Shown piece after piece: positions 5,813 to 64,000 of a stretch of 64,000 bases of DNA. Below the pieces are notes generated by a model, which was not told where the DNA came from, did no database searches, and saw only the letters and a list, made by a program, of their open reading frames with translations. How positions within the stretch are numbered: the first letter of the stretch is position 1; each line of letters starts with the position of its first letter. Source of the DNA: a virus (Duplodnaviria; Caudoviricetes); IMG/VR virus record IMGVR_UViG_3300028048_000075, positions 32,001 to 96,000 of that record, one strand, 5' to 3'. The translations under genes were made by a program, and so were the position numbers.

Positions 5813-5909
5813 AAGCCTATCCACTTTCATGGTTTATGTTTTACCGGAAGTGGAGATTTTATAACTAGATTTTCTCCGTCATCTAGTCAAAACTATAGAT
5901 TTTTTTTTC

Positions 5910-6009
5910 GTCGGTTTGGTTTAGTGGCAGAACGCCTTGTATACTTGAATAGTTACTACACTCCTGTTTCAAGTTTGAGGAAACATATGTTCGATTCATA
6001 TAACTGACA
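5910..6009 (+). ncRNA. tRNA-like RNA with extended anticodon arm (possible intron-containing tRNA)
   Basis: Acceptor GTCGGTT/AACTGAC, D arm GTTT-AGTGGCA-GAAC, T arm ATATG-TTCGATT-CATAT; 36 nt between anticodon-stem strands. Confidence 0.7.
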
Positions 6010-6011
6010 AA

Positions 6012-6094
6012 GTGAGCCCAAAATATAAAAAAGAGATTCGAGTCCATCCAATAAAACGATCTCCTGCTGAAGACAGCACAATTTTGGGTTTCAC
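6012..6094 (+). ncRNA. structured RNA candidate (three-way junction)
   Basis: Closing stem gtgagcccaaaat/attttgggtttcac; inner gagat..atctc and tgctg-aaga-cagca hairpins. Confidence 0.5.
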
Positions 6095-6135
6095 GTTTTG
6101 TAAACTTTTTGAAAGGTTGTTTACATTATCATTCG

Positions 6136-6713: not shown

Positions 6714-6783
6714 ATTTGTACTAATGTGGATTCACATTGCTTTCCGGCTACATTTTGGTACAACCATGAAATTTTCCTCTTTT

Positions 6784-6819
6784 GGGTACACAGGAGTTTT
6801 CTCCTGTGTATCTTTTTTT
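6784..6819 (+). terminator. intrinsic terminator ending tRNA block
   Basis: tacacaggag-tttt-ctcctgtgta plus T7. Confidence 0.8.
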
Positions 6820-6866
6820 CGTTCACAATTTTTGACATTTGAATATAACTGAAGAAGGAAAACAAT

Positions 6867-8244: not shown

Positions 8245-8266
8245 AAACGATTACCAAACATAATAA

Positions 8267-8394
8267 TGTGTTATACATTCACGTGAATGTGTGGCCATGA
8301 GAGAATCTGTGATTCAGTGATGGTTGGCATGCGCCGAATCAGTTCATCTCGCGTAACAAGAATGGTGAAGGTGGCTAAATGCCACCTTCATTTT
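8267..8394 (+). ncRNA. candidate small RNA with own promoter motif and terminator
   Basis: AACA-N6-TG at 8257; GC-richer hairpins; terminator tgaaggtggc/gccaccttca 8366-8394. Confidence 0.45.
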
Positions 8395-40255: not shown

Positions 40256-40371
40256 TTTGAGGTTAACTGTAGAAACCTCAAGTCTGATCATATTAGAACG
40301 GGTTCAGTGGTAGAACCCGTTCTTTTTTTTTATCATCGTCGACATTTTTATATAACCTAAAGGAATGAAAA

Positions 40372-41094
40372 ATGCCTAAAACTAACGAAAAATCGGTGGC
40401 TGTATCAGAGAAAATGGTCAATTTGGTATCAAAAACCACCAAAAATGGAAATATAGTAATATCTATGGAAGATTCAAAATACTATTATTTACCTTTTGAT
40501 AAATCTCCTTTAGATATATCAGACCCTAAAATACGAAATTCTTTTATTAAATCCGTAGAGAAACTAGTAAGAACTAGTAAGTTATATAAAAAGTATATTA
40601 ATTATCTTAAAGCTGATGTTGGATTAACGCATTGTGCAATATTTGGTAATATCAAATCCGAAAAAGGTGATAAAACTAAAATTGAAATGCACCATGGTCC
40701 AATATTCACATTGTATGACTACGTATCAATAGTTCTCGAAAAACATCTACGTGAAAATGCTAACGACTTAAATACTTTCGATATAGCTGCAGAGGTATTG
40801 GATTTGCATAAAAGACGACTGGTACAGACTGTGATGTTATCTGAATCTGTACATAAGTCTATGGATAACAAAAAACTTGCTCCATTCATTTCTCTTGATA
40901 TGACATTTGGAGATCTTAAAGGTTTTGTTATGGAATATGGTAAGTATTTCTCTCCACAAAATAGAGCAGATCTTAAAAATTACTTTGCACATTACAAGTT
41001 TAACCTAGAAAATAACAGGTTAAATATGTTTAAACCTATATTCACCAAATATGATATTAAAATGGTGAATAGCAAATATGAGGTTCCATCATGA
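40372..41094 (+). CDS. HNH-like His-motif protein, paralogue of 31038
   Basis: CAIF..IEMHHGPIFTLYD..LH..VMLSESVH; late motif at 40341. Confidence 0.6.
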   Translation: MPKTNEKSVAVSEKMVNLVSKTTKNGNIVISMEDSKYYYLPFDKSPLDISDPKIRNSFIKSVEKLVRTSKLYKKYINYLKADVGLTHCAIFGNIKSEKGDKTKIEMHHGPIFTLYDYVSIVLEKHLRENANDLNTFDIAAEVLDLHKRRLVQTVMLSESVHKSMDNKKLAPFISLDMTFGDLKGFVMEYGKYFSPQNRADLKNYFAHYKFNLENNRLNMFKPIFTKYDIKMVNSKYEVPS

Positions 41095-44000
41095 GTTTTG
41101 AAGCAGTCTATAGATCTAGAGAAGGTGCTAGAGAAATAACAAAAATTGCCAATTTCATAGGCTCATTAGTTATAAAGAATGAATATGAGGCTCAAAGATA
41201 TGAAACTTCAGAATCTCTATCCTCATATATAAAATATCATGGAGCATATACTTCTACAGATGCGTTTGCTGATTACGATTTGGAATTTAGAAGAGGTCAC
41301 AAAGATGAAGCTATGCACATTATGAATGGTTTTATTAAGAACTATCATTTTGATATAGCAACATTGAATACTATGACTGAATCTCGAGTTAAATCGTTAC
41401 AAGAAGGATATGACAAAAAGATTCCATTGTATCAGGATTATTTGAAAGCTCTTCGTATTGCTCGTGTAGCATATAGTGAAGAAATTAATCCTTATTATAG
41501 ACAATTTATGGGAAAGGCTCCAATAGGTGAAGAACCTGTCAAAATCATTAATAAAGATATGGATGATGACGGTTTTACACAAGTTACAGATTTGAGTCAA
41601 TATCCAGATCCCAAATTGATCTATTATCGTAAAGAAATCGATGAAGCGGGTGATGTTCATTGGTATATTATTGGCTATTTAGCTGGATGGTATAAAGAAA
41701 CTGAAGATGGTTCATTAGTACCTATAGCAGACAATTTCTATTATCTTAATACGATTTATGTCGATACATTGACTAAGACCAAATATCCCAAAACATTTAA
41801 CTATTATATTCTTCAGAATCATATTGCTGAAGTAATTGCTGCAAATCCAGATAAACATTATTTAAGGTTTGTTGGAGAATCTTTATCACCATTTTATTTG
41901 AGAAACCTTGAGAATTATGGTATAATTAAGTATGACGATAAGATATTGAGTCCTACTGAGTTGCATTATTTCTTTAAGGCTTACGATAAAGCTAGAAAAC
42001 AAGTTTTGCTTGATTATATAAATGGTTTCGATTCTAAACAACCTTTGTATAACCTCTTGATGATTCAGAATCTTCTGTATTATACTGTAATTAACTTTAC
42101 TAGTACATATATAGAACGTTATTCTCTTGGTATTTATACTGAAGAGAACATGAATGATATTCTTGAATCTTATGGATATAAGAGTCTTGTTCATATACAA
42201 GATTTGACTATTAAACAAAGAGTTGTTAAAAACCTTAATGAACTTATTGCAAATAAGGGTAACAACTACATTCTTGATATAATTCTTGAAAAGATTATTC
42301 AGGACCCAGATACAGAATTAAAACGTTACTATCTGGAAAAGAAATATAGAACTAGTGAATACGATAATGAAATCGATATCAATACTTCTGCTGGTCTAGA
42401 AAATTCTATAGATCTTGTATTCCGTGAAGTTCCAGTTACAGAACTTGATACAACTTCAGTTACTGCTGATTCTTATAAGAATTATGATCAGTTTGTTGCT
42501 AGTGATGATCTTTGGGGAGGTATAGAACCCGGTGATTCACAATCGATTAAAGAAAACAAGAAAGAGTATATTAAGAAGAAATTAATTTCTTCTAACTTTA
42601 ACTCAATTCTTGTAAAATACATAACTCTTACGAAATCTATAGATATCGTAAATGCTCAACGTCAACTACGTGATCTTGTATATCTTATGCTTTGTTATTT
42701 CCATGAGCATAAATCTGAAGAATTCTTTAATAAGAAAATCGATTTTGATAAATTCTCTGTAACTCCAGCTGCTTTATTTGGTGCTCTTTGTTGGTTACAG
42801 CAAATGAAGTTTTCTAATGAAGTTGCTCCTATGGCTGATGAAGATAGACGTGATCCTGTAGTTAAAAGAACATTCTGTGACGATGCCGACATTATTCAAT
42901 ACGACAAAACAGTTATTACAAGTTCTGTAGTATTTAGAAAAATGGGATCTTTGGCTGTCGATATGAATATTCTTCAGAATAATACATTCGTTATTGATGG
43001 TAAACCAGTTGTTATATACGATATTTCCCCAGAAATTGGTTCTTGGAAAGTTATAGATTTCTTAAAAGAGAATCCAGATATGCTCGAAGGAATTAATATC
43101 GGATTGGATGGAAAACGTATAGAAACTACTAGACTTACTGACCAATACGATGAATATGGAAGACTCAAAGAAAAAGGTGTAATGTCTTATGGTATATCTG
43201 CTCCAGATGGCTATAAACATTTGAGCGCTTATCAAGAAGAGTTGGAAGATTTCTTAGTAAGATTCCGTTATTTTAAAAATGGAGTAGATCTAGGAGATGC
43301 AACACTCGGAACAACATTCTCTGAATTAGTGGAAGACTATAAAACCCAATATCCTTCCTTGATTAATGCTATAACTGAGAAAATGAAAAAGTCTTATGAT
43401 TATAGAGAATATCAAGCTTGGGTATATATGCTTGAGCAATCACAAAGAAATAATTCTATAGATTTTATCTTTAAGGGTTGTGAAAGATATACAGATTATC
43501 TCAAACTTATGGAATCTGAAGGGTTAATAGATTACATTTACACAAATGTTAGAGTAAACAATAATAAACTTAGACTTGATGATGTATATGCTGTTCAGGA
43601 AACAATCAACAATGCATTTAAGAGTTGGGTTTATAATAACTTCTCTAAACTCATTTACCAAGTAAATGATGGAAATAATGACGAATCATCTTCAGAAGCT
43701 TCTTATGTAAATGACATGAAACTTTTGTTTGATGAATTTTTGTCAGTTTTCTCCCAGTTGTATACTGTAAACTACAAATATACTTTTGGTGATAAAGAAA
43801 AGAATGCTGATCAAATTCAGTTATTCTATAATCCTGTAAACTATTGGTATAAGGACAAACTCGTCGATTACATCGGTGTAACAGACAAAATTTTCAAAAC
43901 TCAGCTTAATGATAAGACTGAAGATAAATTGTGTCTTACATATCGGTATGGAATCGATGAGAAAGCCAAAATGTTTGATAACATCAATAACGATCTTATC

Positions 44001-44216
44001 ATTATTGATGATGGAGAAACAAAAAAATATATTCCTGAGGATCAATTTAAATATGAATTTGTTGGTTCTAGAGAAGTTAACAAGGCTTATGAGCATCTTG
44101 GTCTTACTGAAAAATGTCTGAGATCTGAAGAAAGACACACTCTTTCGATGACACTCGGATTAAGAGATGCGTTTAAAATAATCTCGGATGAAGGAGAAAA
44201 AATTTATTATGAATAA
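41091..44216 (+). CDS. probable baseplate/virion structural protein
   Basis: NPYYRQFMG, NLNELIANKG, DDLWGG pattern; late operon, next to collar-like gene. Confidence 0.6.
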   Translation: MSFEAVYRSREGAREITKIANFIGSLVIKNEYEAQRYETSESLSSYIKYHGAYTSTDAFADYDLEFRRGHKDEAMHIMNGFIKNYHFDIATLNTMTESRVKSLQEGYDKKIPLYQDYLKALRIARVAYSEEINPYYRQFMGKAPIGEEPVKIINKDMDDDGFTQVTDLSQYPDPKLIYYRKEIDEAGDVHWYIIGYLAGWYKETEDGSLVPIADNFYYLNTIYVDTLTKTKYPKTFNYYILQNHIAEVIAANPDKHYLRFVGESLSPFYLRNLENYGIIKYDDKILSPTELHYFFKAYDKARKQVLLDYINGFDSKQPLYNLLMIQNLLYYTVINFTSTYIERYSLGIYTEENMNDILESYGYKSLVHIQDLTIKQRVVKNLNELIANKGNNYILDIILEKIIQDPDTELKRYYLEKKYRTSEYDNEIDINTSAGLENSIDLVFREVPVTELDTTSVTADSYKNYDQFVASDDLWGGIEPGDSQSIKENKKEYIKKKLISSNFNSILVKYITLTKSIDIVNAQRQLRDLVYLMLCYFHEHKSEEFFNKKIDFDKFSVTPAALFGALCWLQQMKFSNEVAPMADEDRRDPVVKRTFCDDADIIQYDKTVITSSVVFRKMGSLAVDMNILQNNTFVIDGKPVVIYDISPEIGSWKVIDFLKENPDMLEGINIGLDGKRIETTRLTDQYDEYGRLKEKGVMSYGISAPDGYKHLSAYQEELEDFLVRFRYFKNGVDLGDATLGTTFSELVEDYKTQYPSLINAITEKMKKSYDYREYQAWVYMLEQSQRNNSIDFIFKGCERYTDYLKLMESEGLIDYIYTNVRVNNNKLRLDDVYAVQETINNAFKSWVYNNFSKLIYQVNDGNNDESSSEASYVNDMKLLFDEFLSVFSQLYTVNYKYTFGDKEKNADQIQLFYNPVNYWYKDKLVDYIGVTDKIFKTQLNDKTEDKLCLTYRYGIDEKAKMFDNINNDLIIIDDGETKKYIPEDQFKYEFVGSREVNKAYEHLGLTEKCLRSEERHTLSMTLGLRDAFKIISDEGEKIYYE

Positions 44217-45237
44217 GAACGTTCATTTTTCTGATTCTATATATGTGAAAGATGTGGCTAATATGCCATCAACTCTTAACACAGAAGTTATCATTACAGC
44301 TAAGAACTGTAAGTCTGAAGGTTCTGTAGAACGTCAGATTTATAAGAATAAAACTGCTCTTCCTGGCAGAACAAGTCTCTTGGAATCTGTATTCCCAGTA
44401 TCTCCAAATATTAGAGATCAGCATATCTTTATTAATGATAACGTTCTTGGTGAAACAGATAATACTGGTGCTCCTATCGCTAATCCTCAGAAGATCATTC
44501 TTCCTACAGGTGTAAACGAAGGAATGCTCCCTAGAAACAACATCAATCTCTTCCGTAGAAGACGTGTAGCATATTGGTGTGCAGGTGATGGTGCTATGAA
44601 CAGAACACTTATTAGTGAGTCATATCCAGCACATATCACAAACTCAAGACTATACCACATGATTCCTTTCCGTGTAACTGGAGATGGTGGAGATAATACT
44701 ATCGATGCCACAATGTACAAAGGAAAGGTTGTCTATAACACAAACCATCCATTGAGTGGTAGAACCGCAGCATATTTTAAGAAAATCGAATTCGATGGAC
44801 TTGAAAGCGGTATCAAAATGCTTGTAGAAGGTACACCTTATACACCATCTTGGAGAGATACAGCTCCTGATCTTGATGCTGAAGATCCACAGGGTTACGT
44901 CAATAAATTCCGTGGAAATGCTAATCAGACTAACTATGTCGATATGGTTCTCAACATCAATGCTGAAGAATTTAAGTCATGGTTTAACCTTACTGAATCA
45001 ACATTGGCTAATGCTACTATTAGTGAAATTGGTTTGGTTCTTGGATATGAAGGATATCTTGGTAATGGTTCTCTAAAAGCTGTAGAGGATCTAAATCCTG
45101 ATGATCCAGAATATACAAATTCTAAGAAGATCGCTGAAGTATTCGATGCCGAGCTTTTTGCTCATCTAACATTCGATCCTTATAGCGTATCTCGCGAAAA
45201 CGCTTCAATCACGATTGAATATCGTGTATATGCATAA
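44209..45237 (+). CDS. baseplate/tail-fibre-collar-like protein
   Basis: C-terminal ISEIGLVLG...LFAHLTF...ITIEYRVY. Confidence 0.65.
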   Translation: MNKNVHFSDSIYVKDVANMPSTLNTEVIITAKNCKSEGSVERQIYKNKTALPGRTSLLESVFPVSPNIRDQHIFINDNVLGETDNTGAPIANPQKIILPTGVNEGMLPRNNINLFRRRRVAYWCAGDGAMNRTLISESYPAHITNSRLYHMIPFRVTGDGGDNTIDATMYKGKVVYNTNHPLSGRTAAYFKKIEFDGLESGIKMLVEGTPYTPSWRDTAPDLDAEDPQGYVNKFRGNANQTNYVDMVLNINAEEFKSWFNLTESTLANATISEIGLVLGYEGYLGNGSLKAVEDLNPDDPEYTNSKKIAEVFDAELFAHLTFDPYSVSRENASITIEYRVYA

Positions 45238-45318
45238 ATCATTTACTTCCTTTACTGGTCACGAATAATTTCATTGTTCGTTGTTGTCATAAAGTACTCC
45301 TTTTCATAAAATCATGAG

Positions 45319-45350
45319 GCTGTGCGAGTTCTCTCGCACAGCAATTTTAT
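45319..45350 (+). terminator. hairpin / probable terminator
   Basis: gctgtgcgag-ttct-ctcgcacagc then T-rich tail. Confidence 0.65.
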
Positions 45351-45398
45351 TTGTCATCATCGACAAATGAATATATTCGTTACTTATGGAGTTATCAT

Positions 45399-46682
45399 AT
45401 GAATGACAATGATACTTTGAAATATAAAAAACTTAAATATGAGGATATAAAAGACGTTATTGAGAAACTCAAAGATCCTAATAACATAACACGAAGTTAC
45501 CTTACAGAATTGTTTTCAAATAGACAAGGTAAACGAGATGATAATGGTAAAATCGAAGTACTTCCAGCAAGATTTAGATGTACGGATTACTTTGATTTAC
45601 CAGCTGGGGTTTTGGAAAATCAACCACAAGCTATTAAAGATACAACATTAGGCATCTTTATTTTCAATTCTCTTGTTATAAATAATGCTTTTCATGGTAA
45701 AGTAAGTTATCAAAATGCTCCTTTGAATGATGATAATCGAGATGATCTTATCGATAAAATTGGTTTGTTTATACTTAGAGATCAGATCAGTGTACAAGAG
45801 TTTGCAGTTTTCTGTAACGCTATCGTTTGGCTAGGATATCAGAACGAACTCTTTATGCCTGGAGTTTCTTTGGAATTGGTTATACCTAATAAAGAAATTG
45901 CTAAACTTAAAGTTAAACTTCTTAATGAGCATAAACATCTAACAGAACGTAAAGTTATGTCTAATGTTGAAGTTGCTGAATATGCTGACAAAATTGAAAA
46001 ACCTCTTATTGATAAAGCTAAAGAGTTGAGTGAAAACAATTATGCTGGAAAACTGTTTGATTTGGGTAAACCTACTATTAAAAACCAGTATAAAAACTCC
46101 AATATTACCAATGGTCCTATTATGGATCCTACAACAGGTAAATACAAAATAAACGTAAATTCTTACAATGAAGGAATTAACGACTGGAACTTTGATGTTT
46201 TGGCAAATAAATCCGTAATTGCATCTTATTCTCGTGGCGTTAATACTCAAGTTGGTGGTACATATGCTAAATACGTTGGTATTTTGATGCAGACTGTTGT
46301 AGCTGGTCCTAAAGGTTCAGATTGCCATACTACAGGGTATTTGGATTTTCTTGTCACAAAATTCAATAAGAGCACAATAGAGTTTAATTATGCTATAACT
46401 CCAGATAGTGGAGGTAAAGAGGTAGTTCTTACTGACACTATGCTAAATGGCTTAGTCGGAAAACGTATTAAAATGCGCTCTCCAATATTTTGTAAGAATC
46501 CTAAATGTCTTTGTAATCATTGTATTGGTGATAGAACTTATGCTCTTGGTATTAAAAACATTGGTCTTACTGGAAATATTCCATTCGACTCTCAGAAGAA
46601 TATCTCTATGAAAGCTGCTCACGATATTTCTGTAAAACCATACAATGCTAATGTAGAAGAATTTATCGCATTCGAAAAATAA
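45399..46682 (+). CDS. RNA polymerase beta' middle fragment, probably virion RNAP
   Basis: TTLGIFIFN, bridge-helix-like SRGVNTQVGGTYAK, DCHT, RSPIFC...CNHCIG; GACA-N6-TA at 45362. Confidence 0.85.
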   Translation: MNDNDTLKYKKLKYEDIKDVIEKLKDPNNITRSYLTELFSNRQGKRDDNGKIEVLPARFRCTDYFDLPAGVLENQPQAIKDTTLGIFIFNSLVINNAFHGKVSYQNAPLNDDNRDDLIDKIGLFILRDQISVQEFAVFCNAIVWLGYQNELFMPGVSLELVIPNKEIAKLKVKLLNEHKHLTERKVMSNVEVAEYADKIEKPLIDKAKELSENNYAGKLFDLGKPTIKNQYKNSNITNGPIMDPTTGKYKINVNSYNEGINDWNFDVLANKSVIASYSRGVNTQVGGTYAKYVGILMQTVVAGPKGSDCHTTGYLDFLVTKFNKSTIEFNYAITPDSGGKEVVLTDTMLNGLVGKRIKMRSPIFCKNPKCLCNHCIGDRTYALGIKNIGLTGNIPFDSQKNISMKAAHDISVKPYNANVEEFIAFEK

Positions 46683-46744
46683 TAACATAAGGTCCCTATA
46701 TCAGGGACCTTAGTTTTTTATCCTGTTAAGACCCCCCCCCACAC

Positions 46745-55495: not shown

Positions 55496-55539
55496 TGACA
55501 AATGGGGTTTTATACCCCATTTGTATATTTTGGTCCATC

Positions 55540-55551
55540 GACAAAACTATA
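55540..55551 (+). promoter_or_regulatory. late-type promoter motif (A/G)ACA-N6-TA (representative copy)
   Basis: Also at 5454, 6834, 20544, 40341, 45362, 54316, and on - strand at 10081-10092 and 61660-61671. Confidence 0.7.
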
Positions 55552-55586
55552 TACTTTTCGAAATGGTTATTACAAAGGAGTAAGTT

Positions 55587-63348: not shown

Positions 63349-63379
63349 TGTAATGATAATAATACTGTAAGGAGGTATT

Positions 63380-64000
63380 ATGGAAAAACAAAAACGTGAT
63401 TGGAAAACCATTGAGGATGATATTAGAAATCATCCCGGTGTTTATTCCAAAGCTGATATTACTCGTAAATATCAGTTAAGGAAATTCGAATGTCAAGTAC
63501 ATTTCAGATATCGTCTTGAGTTCGAAGATCTGTTTCGCAACGGGTACGAAAAGTATGACTGGAAAACTGTCGAAGAAGACATTAGACAGAATCCAGGCGT
63601 ATATTCTCGAATGGATATTTGTGAAAAATACAACATTTGTAGAACAGCAGCCATATCCCATTTTAAAAAGAATAAGGAATTCAAACCTTTGCTTTGTGTC
63701 AAAAATCGTAAAGATCTTAGATATGATTGGCAAAGCATAGAGCAAGATGTTAGAGACAATCCTAACAAATACTCTTTTGCAATTATAACTAAGAAATACG
63801 GCATGACATTTTCAGCTTGTATAAATCACTTTAAACATTGTCCAGAATTAAAAGAATTGATTTTGGACGATTCGACGTTCCGAAAGTACAATTGGAAAAT
63901 CATCGAAGATGACATTAAAAGTTGTCCTCGTGGTGAATATTCGATTACCGACATTTGTAAAAAATACGGAACAACGATTACAGCGTGTTTATCACGTTTC
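63380..64000 (+). CDS. tandem HTH-repeat protein (at least 4 units), truncated by window end (not in ORF track)
   Basis: AGGAGG RBS; MEKQKRDWKTIEDDIRNHPGVYSKADITRKY..., open to position 64000. Confidence 0.75.
   Translation, partial: MEKQKRDWKTIEDDIRNHPGVYSKADITRKYQLRKFECQVHFRYRLEFEDLFRNGYEKYDWKTVEEDIRQNPGVYSRMDICEKYNICRTAAISHFKKNKEFKPLLCVKNRKDLRYDWQSIEQDVRDNPNKYSFAIITKKYGMTFSACINHFKHCPELKELILDDSTFRKYNWKIIEDDIKSCPRGEYSITDICKKYGTTITACLSRF

Follow-up and report, generated by a model that had tools for sequence, protein, structure and literature searches.

Introduction

Few phage-encoded regulatory RNAs are understood. The c4 antisense RNA of phages P1 and P7 blocks a ribosome-binding site in trans, and the icaR mRNA of Staphylococcus aureus carries in its 3'UTR a UCCCC anti-Shine-Dalgarno (anti-SD) motif that pairs with its own 5'UTR. 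AR9-like jumbo phages possess their own RNA polymerases, and the timing of their gene expression is thought to be controlled mainly at promoters. To our knowledge, no regulatory RNA has yet been reported from AR9-like jumbo phages that infect gut hosts of the Firmicutes type.

Here, we analyzed a 64-kb stretch of DNA (hereafter, the window) that comprises bases 32001-96000 of a 129.6-kb IMG/VR record (~46% complete) and is part of an AR9-like jumbo phage from the gut. Between a stop codon and the terminator of the same mRNA (45238-45342) lies an element that, judging from its sequence, is a plausible translation-blocking RNA and would be a sibling to an early RNA that stands alone and is itself firmly supported. 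RNAs that base-pair through an anti-SD seed are already known, as are anti-SD stretches within 3'UTRs; the sequences described here match no curated family.

The element resembles that of icaR in that a C/U-rich anti-SD stretch sits in the 3'UTR of a protein-coding mRNA in a Gram-positive-type system, with SD occlusion as the proposed effect. It differs in being phage-borne, of the ACTCCTT rather than the UCCCC type, and predicted only, and the start regions of its own operon do not rank among its best partners. With 3'UTR-derived RNAs of the CpxQ/SroC type and with the C-rich-seed RNAs of Firmicutes (RoxS/RsaE and FsrA), it has in common a terminator shared with an mRNA, an open seed next to that terminator and, as we propose here, pairing at ribosome-binding sites, which is where RoxS is reported to act (PMC10433868). 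Unlike for these RNAs, we found neither a processing site nor an internal promoter at our locus, and there is no sequence relation to them and no Rfam match; their seed is a C-run in a loop, whereas the one described here mirrors an SD together with a start codon. As with c4, the RNA is encoded by a phage and exposes segments whose complement is a start region at another locus of that phage, but the two share no homology, their architectures differ, and the target predicted here is not conserved.

Results

Transcription signals and genes around the element

The window has a G+C content of 33% and encodes split RNA polymerase beta-like subunits, and nearly all genes around the element lie on the plus strand. 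Shine-Dalgarno sites are strong in this phage, mostly AAGGAG with a spacing of 6-8 nt. The parts of the study of Bacillus phage AR9 that we draw on give TATATATTAT-N6-G as the early promoter consensus and AACA-N6-TA as the late one (PMC5312081). The early consensus is shared by the phage studied here, with five exact copies in the window. A motif similar in form to the late consensus, reading TCGACA-N6-TAT instead of AACA-N6-TA, is found 32-48 nt upstream of five gene starts. These include 40372 (motif at 40339-40353, plus strand, 32 nt upstream of the gene), 45399 (motif at 45360-45374, plus strand) and 55587 (motif at 55538-55552). By analogy with AR9, we consider this motif a candidate late promoter and a variant of the AR9 sequence. 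Strong intrinsic terminators ending operons are a further likeness between the two phages, and the same parts of the AR9 study mention antisense transcripts but no 3'UTR element comparable to the one described here (PMC5312081). A run of nine C at 46731-46740 adjoins the early promoter of gene 46783 on its upstream side, and a similar long C run (on the plus strand; G on the minus strand) occurs near 97470 in window coordinates, past the window end.

The element forms the 3'UTR of the transcript of a 342-aa gene (44209-45237, plus strand; alternative start at 44188), which closes a plus-strand operon spanning 40372-45237. The 342-aa protein itself matches nothing in Pfam or PHROGs and has no assigned function, and its relatives carry DUF7208. 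The operon had been called a baseplate operon, a label whose sole basis is a baseplate-wedge family neighboring in feature space, Pfam and PHROGs having given no function; we treat it as a lead rather than a finding. On the other side of the terminator, 45399-46682 (plus strand) encodes a split RNA polymerase beta-like subunit of 427 aa (PHROG 2962, E 2e-55). Since TCGACA-N6-TAT, which we read as a late promoter, precedes both the operon and the polymerase subunit gene, both are probably expressed late.

A long spacer with an exposed anti-SD stretch precedes the terminator

The stop codon and the terminator are separated by an 81-nt spacer (45238-45318, plus strand). This is unusual for the phage, in which the stop-to-terminator distance is at most 40 nt in 48 of 53 cases and mostly below 10 nt. 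The spacer is one of five length outliers and the only one with three anti-SD words. Three other long stop-to-terminator spacers, at 8245-8364 (120 nt), 1838-1912 (75 nt) and 6008-6134 (127 nt), may contain further non-coding elements.

The original prediction had placed two CAT/anti-SD motifs around a hairpin and ahead of a terminal hairpin, and all of these features are borne out in the sequence. From 5' to 3' on the plus strand, the spacer contains a distal CAT-N3-CTTCCTTT (CAT-TTA-CTTCCTTT; 45240-45253), half paired in the predicted fold; a middle hairpin of 9 bp with one G-U pair (45261-45281); a proximal CAT-N5-ACTCCTTTT (CAT-AAAGT-ACTCCTTTT; 45288-45304), predicted to be single-stranded; and a small A/U-rich hairpin, weak on its own, that abuts the terminator (45303-45318). 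The terminator itself (45319-45352, plus strand; hairpin at 45319-45342) is real: it shows the G+C-rich stem (10 bp, 7 of them G-C), the short loop (4 nt) and the T-run directly 3' that define an intrinsic terminator.

The proximal stretch is predicted to be accessible, with a mean unpaired probability of 0.91-0.97 (against 0.46-0.47 for the whole RNA) and an opening cost of 0.04-0.25 kcal/mol. Across all versions it is likewise predicted to be open, at 0.73-0.99 compared with 0.41-0.47 for the RNAs as wholes. Base for base, the exposed stretch is complementary to AAGGAGTA, which among AAGGAG-type 8-mers is the one that occurs most often at the gene starts of this phage (7 of 120 genes; AAGGAGT is found in 16), and together with CAT the stretch forms the complement of a start region.

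Taken without the terminator, the spacer folds no better than its shuffles (z of -1.0 on the plus and -0.2 on the minus strand), so the strong fold z-scores of the whole region are due to the terminator; in the sister clade described below, it is the minus strand of the spacer that folds better. We found no early or late promoter motif in or upstream of the spacer, and no processing site that could release a separate small RNA. A sigma-70-type promoter match at 45284-45312 was rejected, as the sister clade does not keep it and transcription from it would run into the terminator. When searched with the covariance models of Rfam 15, the window matched three tRNAs only, and neither L001 nor L016, the sequence that holds the stand-alone RNA described below, gave a match at E up to 1.

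The spacer is specific to two close clades that share the stretch

We then compared the locus among relatives. Within a near-identical clade (98-100% protein identity), the intergenic region is unchanged. The spacer is also found in a sister clade, at 83% protein identity, whose upstream gene agrees with the one studied here at only 53% of its 4-fold degenerate sites. In five distant relatives (L002, L003, L007, L029 and L030; 51-62% protein identity), the stop codon runs straight into the terminator without a spacer. Because it is absent from all five, the spacer is an insertion gained by the two close clades.

The sister clade retains CTTCC, CAT-N6-TACTCCTTTT, the small terminator-adjacent hairpin (longer there, with 8 bp) and the terminator, whose stem carries compensatory A>G / T>C changes in that clade and a G-U variant in L010/L011. 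The proposed double cassette with its hairpin therefore holds for the proximal motif but only partly for the distal one, of which the CAT is gone and CTTCC alone is kept, and not for the middle hairpin, which is deleted in the sister clade, where a different small hairpin is found. Across the two clades, CAT sits 5-6 nt upstream of TACTCCTTTT, and this 10-mer, predicted to be single-stranded, is identical at 53% 4-fold identity. With two lineages only, this lends modest support to a conserved seed: by a rough estimate for two lineages so diverged, ~70 aligned neutral positions would contain an identical run of 10 nt by chance with a probability of ~0.05-0.1. No further match was obtained from a DNA search of the phage collection with 44900-45700, from scanning viral contigs for the exact hairpin and terminator patterns, or from a terminator-pattern scan of metagenomes.

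The gene 3' of the terminator varies among relatives. In the sister clade (L010-L012; L025 11172-11730), one or two extra small genes of 47-183 aa, with their own early promoter, lie between the terminator and the polymerase subunit gene, and more distant relatives carry other genes at this site. Sequence comparison thus marks the site as a hot spot of gene gain and loss.

A stand-alone early RNA carries the same stretch

Approximately 1.2 kb upstream of the window lies a stand-alone RNA unit (L016:356-548, corresponding to G000:C1:30656-30848), whose sense strand is the TACTCCTT strand. The unit has an exact early promoter, a length of ~190 nt, no sense ORF and a structured body (z = -6.3), followed by a 15-nt open stretch with CAT-N3-ACTCCTT and then by a 12-bp terminator. 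The exposed TACTCCTT, the same 8-mer as in the 3'UTR, is located directly upstream of this terminator. In the sister clade's copy of the RNA, the body and stems differ, but promoter, architecture, TACTCCTTA and the 11-nt loop of the terminator are preserved; RNAalifold identifies 15 pairs in which both sides have changed, for several of these pairs inside the sister clade. A sense ORF in the sister clade copy is broken by three C-run length variants and was rejected as non-coding. Considered by itself, the unit is a strong candidate for a small-RNA gene.

In the sister clade, the minus strand of the stand-alone locus has no start codon after the SD mirror. Since the start codon is lost, the conserved object at this locus is the sense-strand stretch and not a start site. 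This sense-strand conservation is the strongest reason we see for reading the 3'UTR copy of the stretch, too, as a feature of a sense-strand RNA.

No match to the stand-alone locus came from a protein-guided search of viral contigs, and a metagenome scan with the conserved loop of the RNA returned 110 matches, all of them chance, with no true relatives. Upstream of the sister clade's stand-alone RNA is an extra block of ~330 nt, inside which the sense strand carries a variable number of 9-nt tandem AAAAYCTCY units (L018:2560-2600, and also L019-L023).

Looser look-alikes and motif statistics

Two further loci resemble these RNAs more loosely. The trailer of a tRNA cluster, after tRNA-Gln (6765-6820, plus strand), has a CAT, 6 nt and a TTCCTC-type stretch directly before a 13-bp terminator. 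In a distant relative (L028:1467-1545, from the 263.7-kb, 94% complete G001), a 10-bp hairpin is followed by a 14-nt open stretch with CAT-N5-ACTCCTT and by a terminator, 3' of a 54-aa gene and of a tRNA-like stretch uncalled by ARAGORN. Together with the stand-alone RNA, these make three elements that were found without CAT as a criterion and nevertheless have CAT 3-6 nt before the anti-SD stretch, an arrangement that base composition would produce with a chance of ~0.09 per element. Because CAT stands at start-codon spacing in all three, the look-alikes mirror a whole start region and not the SD alone. This co-occurrence is in keeping with an anti-start-region RNA, or with a site that is or once was a translation start; it is unlike chance or a plain CU tract.

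A scan for the CAT/anti-SD pattern in the 73 co-directional intergenic regions of the 129.6-kb record found 4 sites where 1.08 were expected (P ~0.03). The enrichment predicted for the pattern is therefore present but mild, and two of the four sites sit in this one spacer (P ~0.03 for a region with two copies). In the whole record, nearly all intergenic copies of ACTCCTT mirror true starts on the opposite strand or form arms of terminator stems. Among ~30 intergenic regions of the sister clade, the only other sense-strand anti-SD 5-mers are one in a hairpin stem and one at a true opposite-strand start. A raw enrichment of anti-SD words before all terminator-like hairpins proved to be an artefact of true opposite-strand starts, and the spacer analysis was used instead; a match at ~77020 was discarded because it lies inside a coding region. 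The hairpin at 5864-5887, to which attention had been drawn for its CUCC loop, does not stand out (z -0.85), and the best fold places its CTCC in a paired region.

Predicted partners are not conserved

We scanned the stretches for duplexes with all 120 start regions. The best partner of the 3'UTR stretch was the start region of gene 53312 (-24.1 kcal/mol, 23 pairs over ~28 nt, P 0.035 with flank-shuffled seeds). For the stand-alone RNA it was the start region of gene 63380 (-25.5 kcal/mol, 18 nt with one bulge, P 0.018; complementary region at window 63349-63382), which encodes a multi-repeat HTH-like protein of 466 aa. In the sister clade, the start region of the 53312 ortholog gave -13.0 kcal/mol (P 0.10), all scans inside that clade were non-significant, and gene 63380 is absent from its place, where other genes are found. 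The best partners thus beat the flank-shuffled controls in this clade, which favors pairing, but the target predictions are weak overall and find no counterpart in the sister clade. The start region of the downstream gene was rejected as a target, with 5 bp only in a hand alignment and -12.4 kcal/mol for its equivalent in the sister clade, and so were the start regions of the operon itself, which are not among the best partners.

Discussion

Our leading reading, held tentatively and at somewhat less than even confidence, is that the 3'UTR element, which is no ordinary mRNA tail, works on the sense strand as an RNA module that pairs with ribosome-binding sites through its exposed stretch. The 81-nt spacer and the terminator would together form this module at the end of a late operon, with weak hairpins, the exposed pyrimidine stretch TACTCCTTTT preceded by CAT, and the intrinsic terminator as its parts. 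The stretch would pair with the Shine-Dalgarno and start regions of mRNAs and thereby block 30S binding, and the active form may be either the mRNA tail left whole or a 3' fragment released by processing and shielded by the terminator. This phage lineage would then have a small set of such elements, of which the present one is the second and the stand-alone early RNA of ~190 nt the firm one. This preserves part of the original idea of a family of late-expressed small RNAs that block ribosome-binding sites: there is an exposed and conserved anti-SD-like stretch before the terminator, a further element with the same stretch, and a late-type promoter motif on the upstream operon. On the other hand, the set is tiny (two firm and two looser loci), its firmest member has an early promoter, and our scans yielded no conserved target.

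The same DNA can be read on the other strand. As had been described, the minus strand reads AAGGAG-N6-ATG followed by 12 codons (45290-45252), the mirror image of the proximal motif, and then AGGAAG-N3-ATG followed by 20 codons (45242-45180) that run antisense into the upstream gene, which we confirm. Real antisense mini-genes, which would require a minus-strand transcript on which ribosomes translate the 12-codon frame and perhaps the 20-codon one, nonetheless appear improbable to us. The peptides are unrelated between the clades, with 12 residues here and 19 in the sister clade, which retains the SD and ATG of this frame but has lost the start of the 20-codon one. The frames of the look-alikes (20 codons, 11 in the tRNA-cluster trailer and 5 in G001) are mutually unrelated, and the sibling RNA locus has no start codon in the sister clade. 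Every neighboring gene lies on the opposite strand, and by the promoter rules inferred for this phage no early or late motif is in place on the minus strand, which offers weak generic matches and one chance-level AACA-N6-TA at 45514. What speaks for translation is the ribosome-binding site of the 12-codon frame, canonical in sequence and spacing: 28 AAGGAG-N5-9-ATG sites occur on both strands, of which 23 are called gene starts and only 2, the spacer's included, fall in intergenic DNA without a called gene. We rank mini-genes low because the peptides are unrelated and a promoter motif of either class is missing upstream on the minus strand, and this alternative, which the original prediction itself had raised, comes out weakened.

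CAT at start-codon spacing is equally compatible with a real or a former start site on the minus strand, which counts against the RNA reading, and the spacer could also be a functionless remnant of an insertion, such as a gene start copied in inverted orientation or the 5' portion of a gene once encoded on the opposite strand and since lost. It was inserted at a gene-turnover hot spot, has all the start-region features of this phage on its minus strand, and resembles the start region of gene 53312 over ~28 nt, while its middle is unconserved and its fold at chance level. With a neutral divergence of 47%, a remnant would be expected to have decayed, but both clades still have an intact 10-mer and CAT; moreover, the stretch is held fixed in the sibling RNA, whose start codon is not, and it adjoins the terminator, as it does in three look-alikes. 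We consider a vestige unlikely, if a contender to be taken seriously, and even a relic would still mark a hot spot of gene turnover beside a virion RNA polymerase subunit gene. An RNA with another role is also conceivable: the stretch might be a site at which a protein binds or an RNase acts, determining how stable the operon mRNA is at its 3' end, or it might be a decoy that mimics the 3' end of 16S rRNA, in which a hairpin is followed by the anti-SD. The recurring layout of a hairpin, an open CU-rich stretch and a hairpin would suit such a role, as would the lack of a conserved mRNA partner in our scans and the fact that the stretch is one C away from what we take to be the canonical anti-SD at the 16S rRNA 3' end. 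However, CAT at start-codon spacing in three look-alikes favors the mirror of a whole start region over a mere CU tract, and we know of no protein that binds such a stretch; we judge these other roles to be rather improbable.

If the element does pair with ribosome-binding sites, it may belong to a broader scheme, which we put forward as a speculation and regard as doubtful. The lineage would run a small set of RNAs that mirror whole start regions (SD and AUG), one early and stand-alone, the others on the tails of a late operon and a tRNA cluster, and these would mask AAGGAGT-type sites of chosen phage or host mRNAs to exert timed translational control. The 3'UTR element and the stand-alone RNA would provide two short, easily mutated elements with which to test the pairing. 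If true, an RNA that mirrors the strongest ribosome-binding site of its phage, and that is carried both by an early stand-alone RNA and by the tail of a late mRNA, would point to control at the level of translation.
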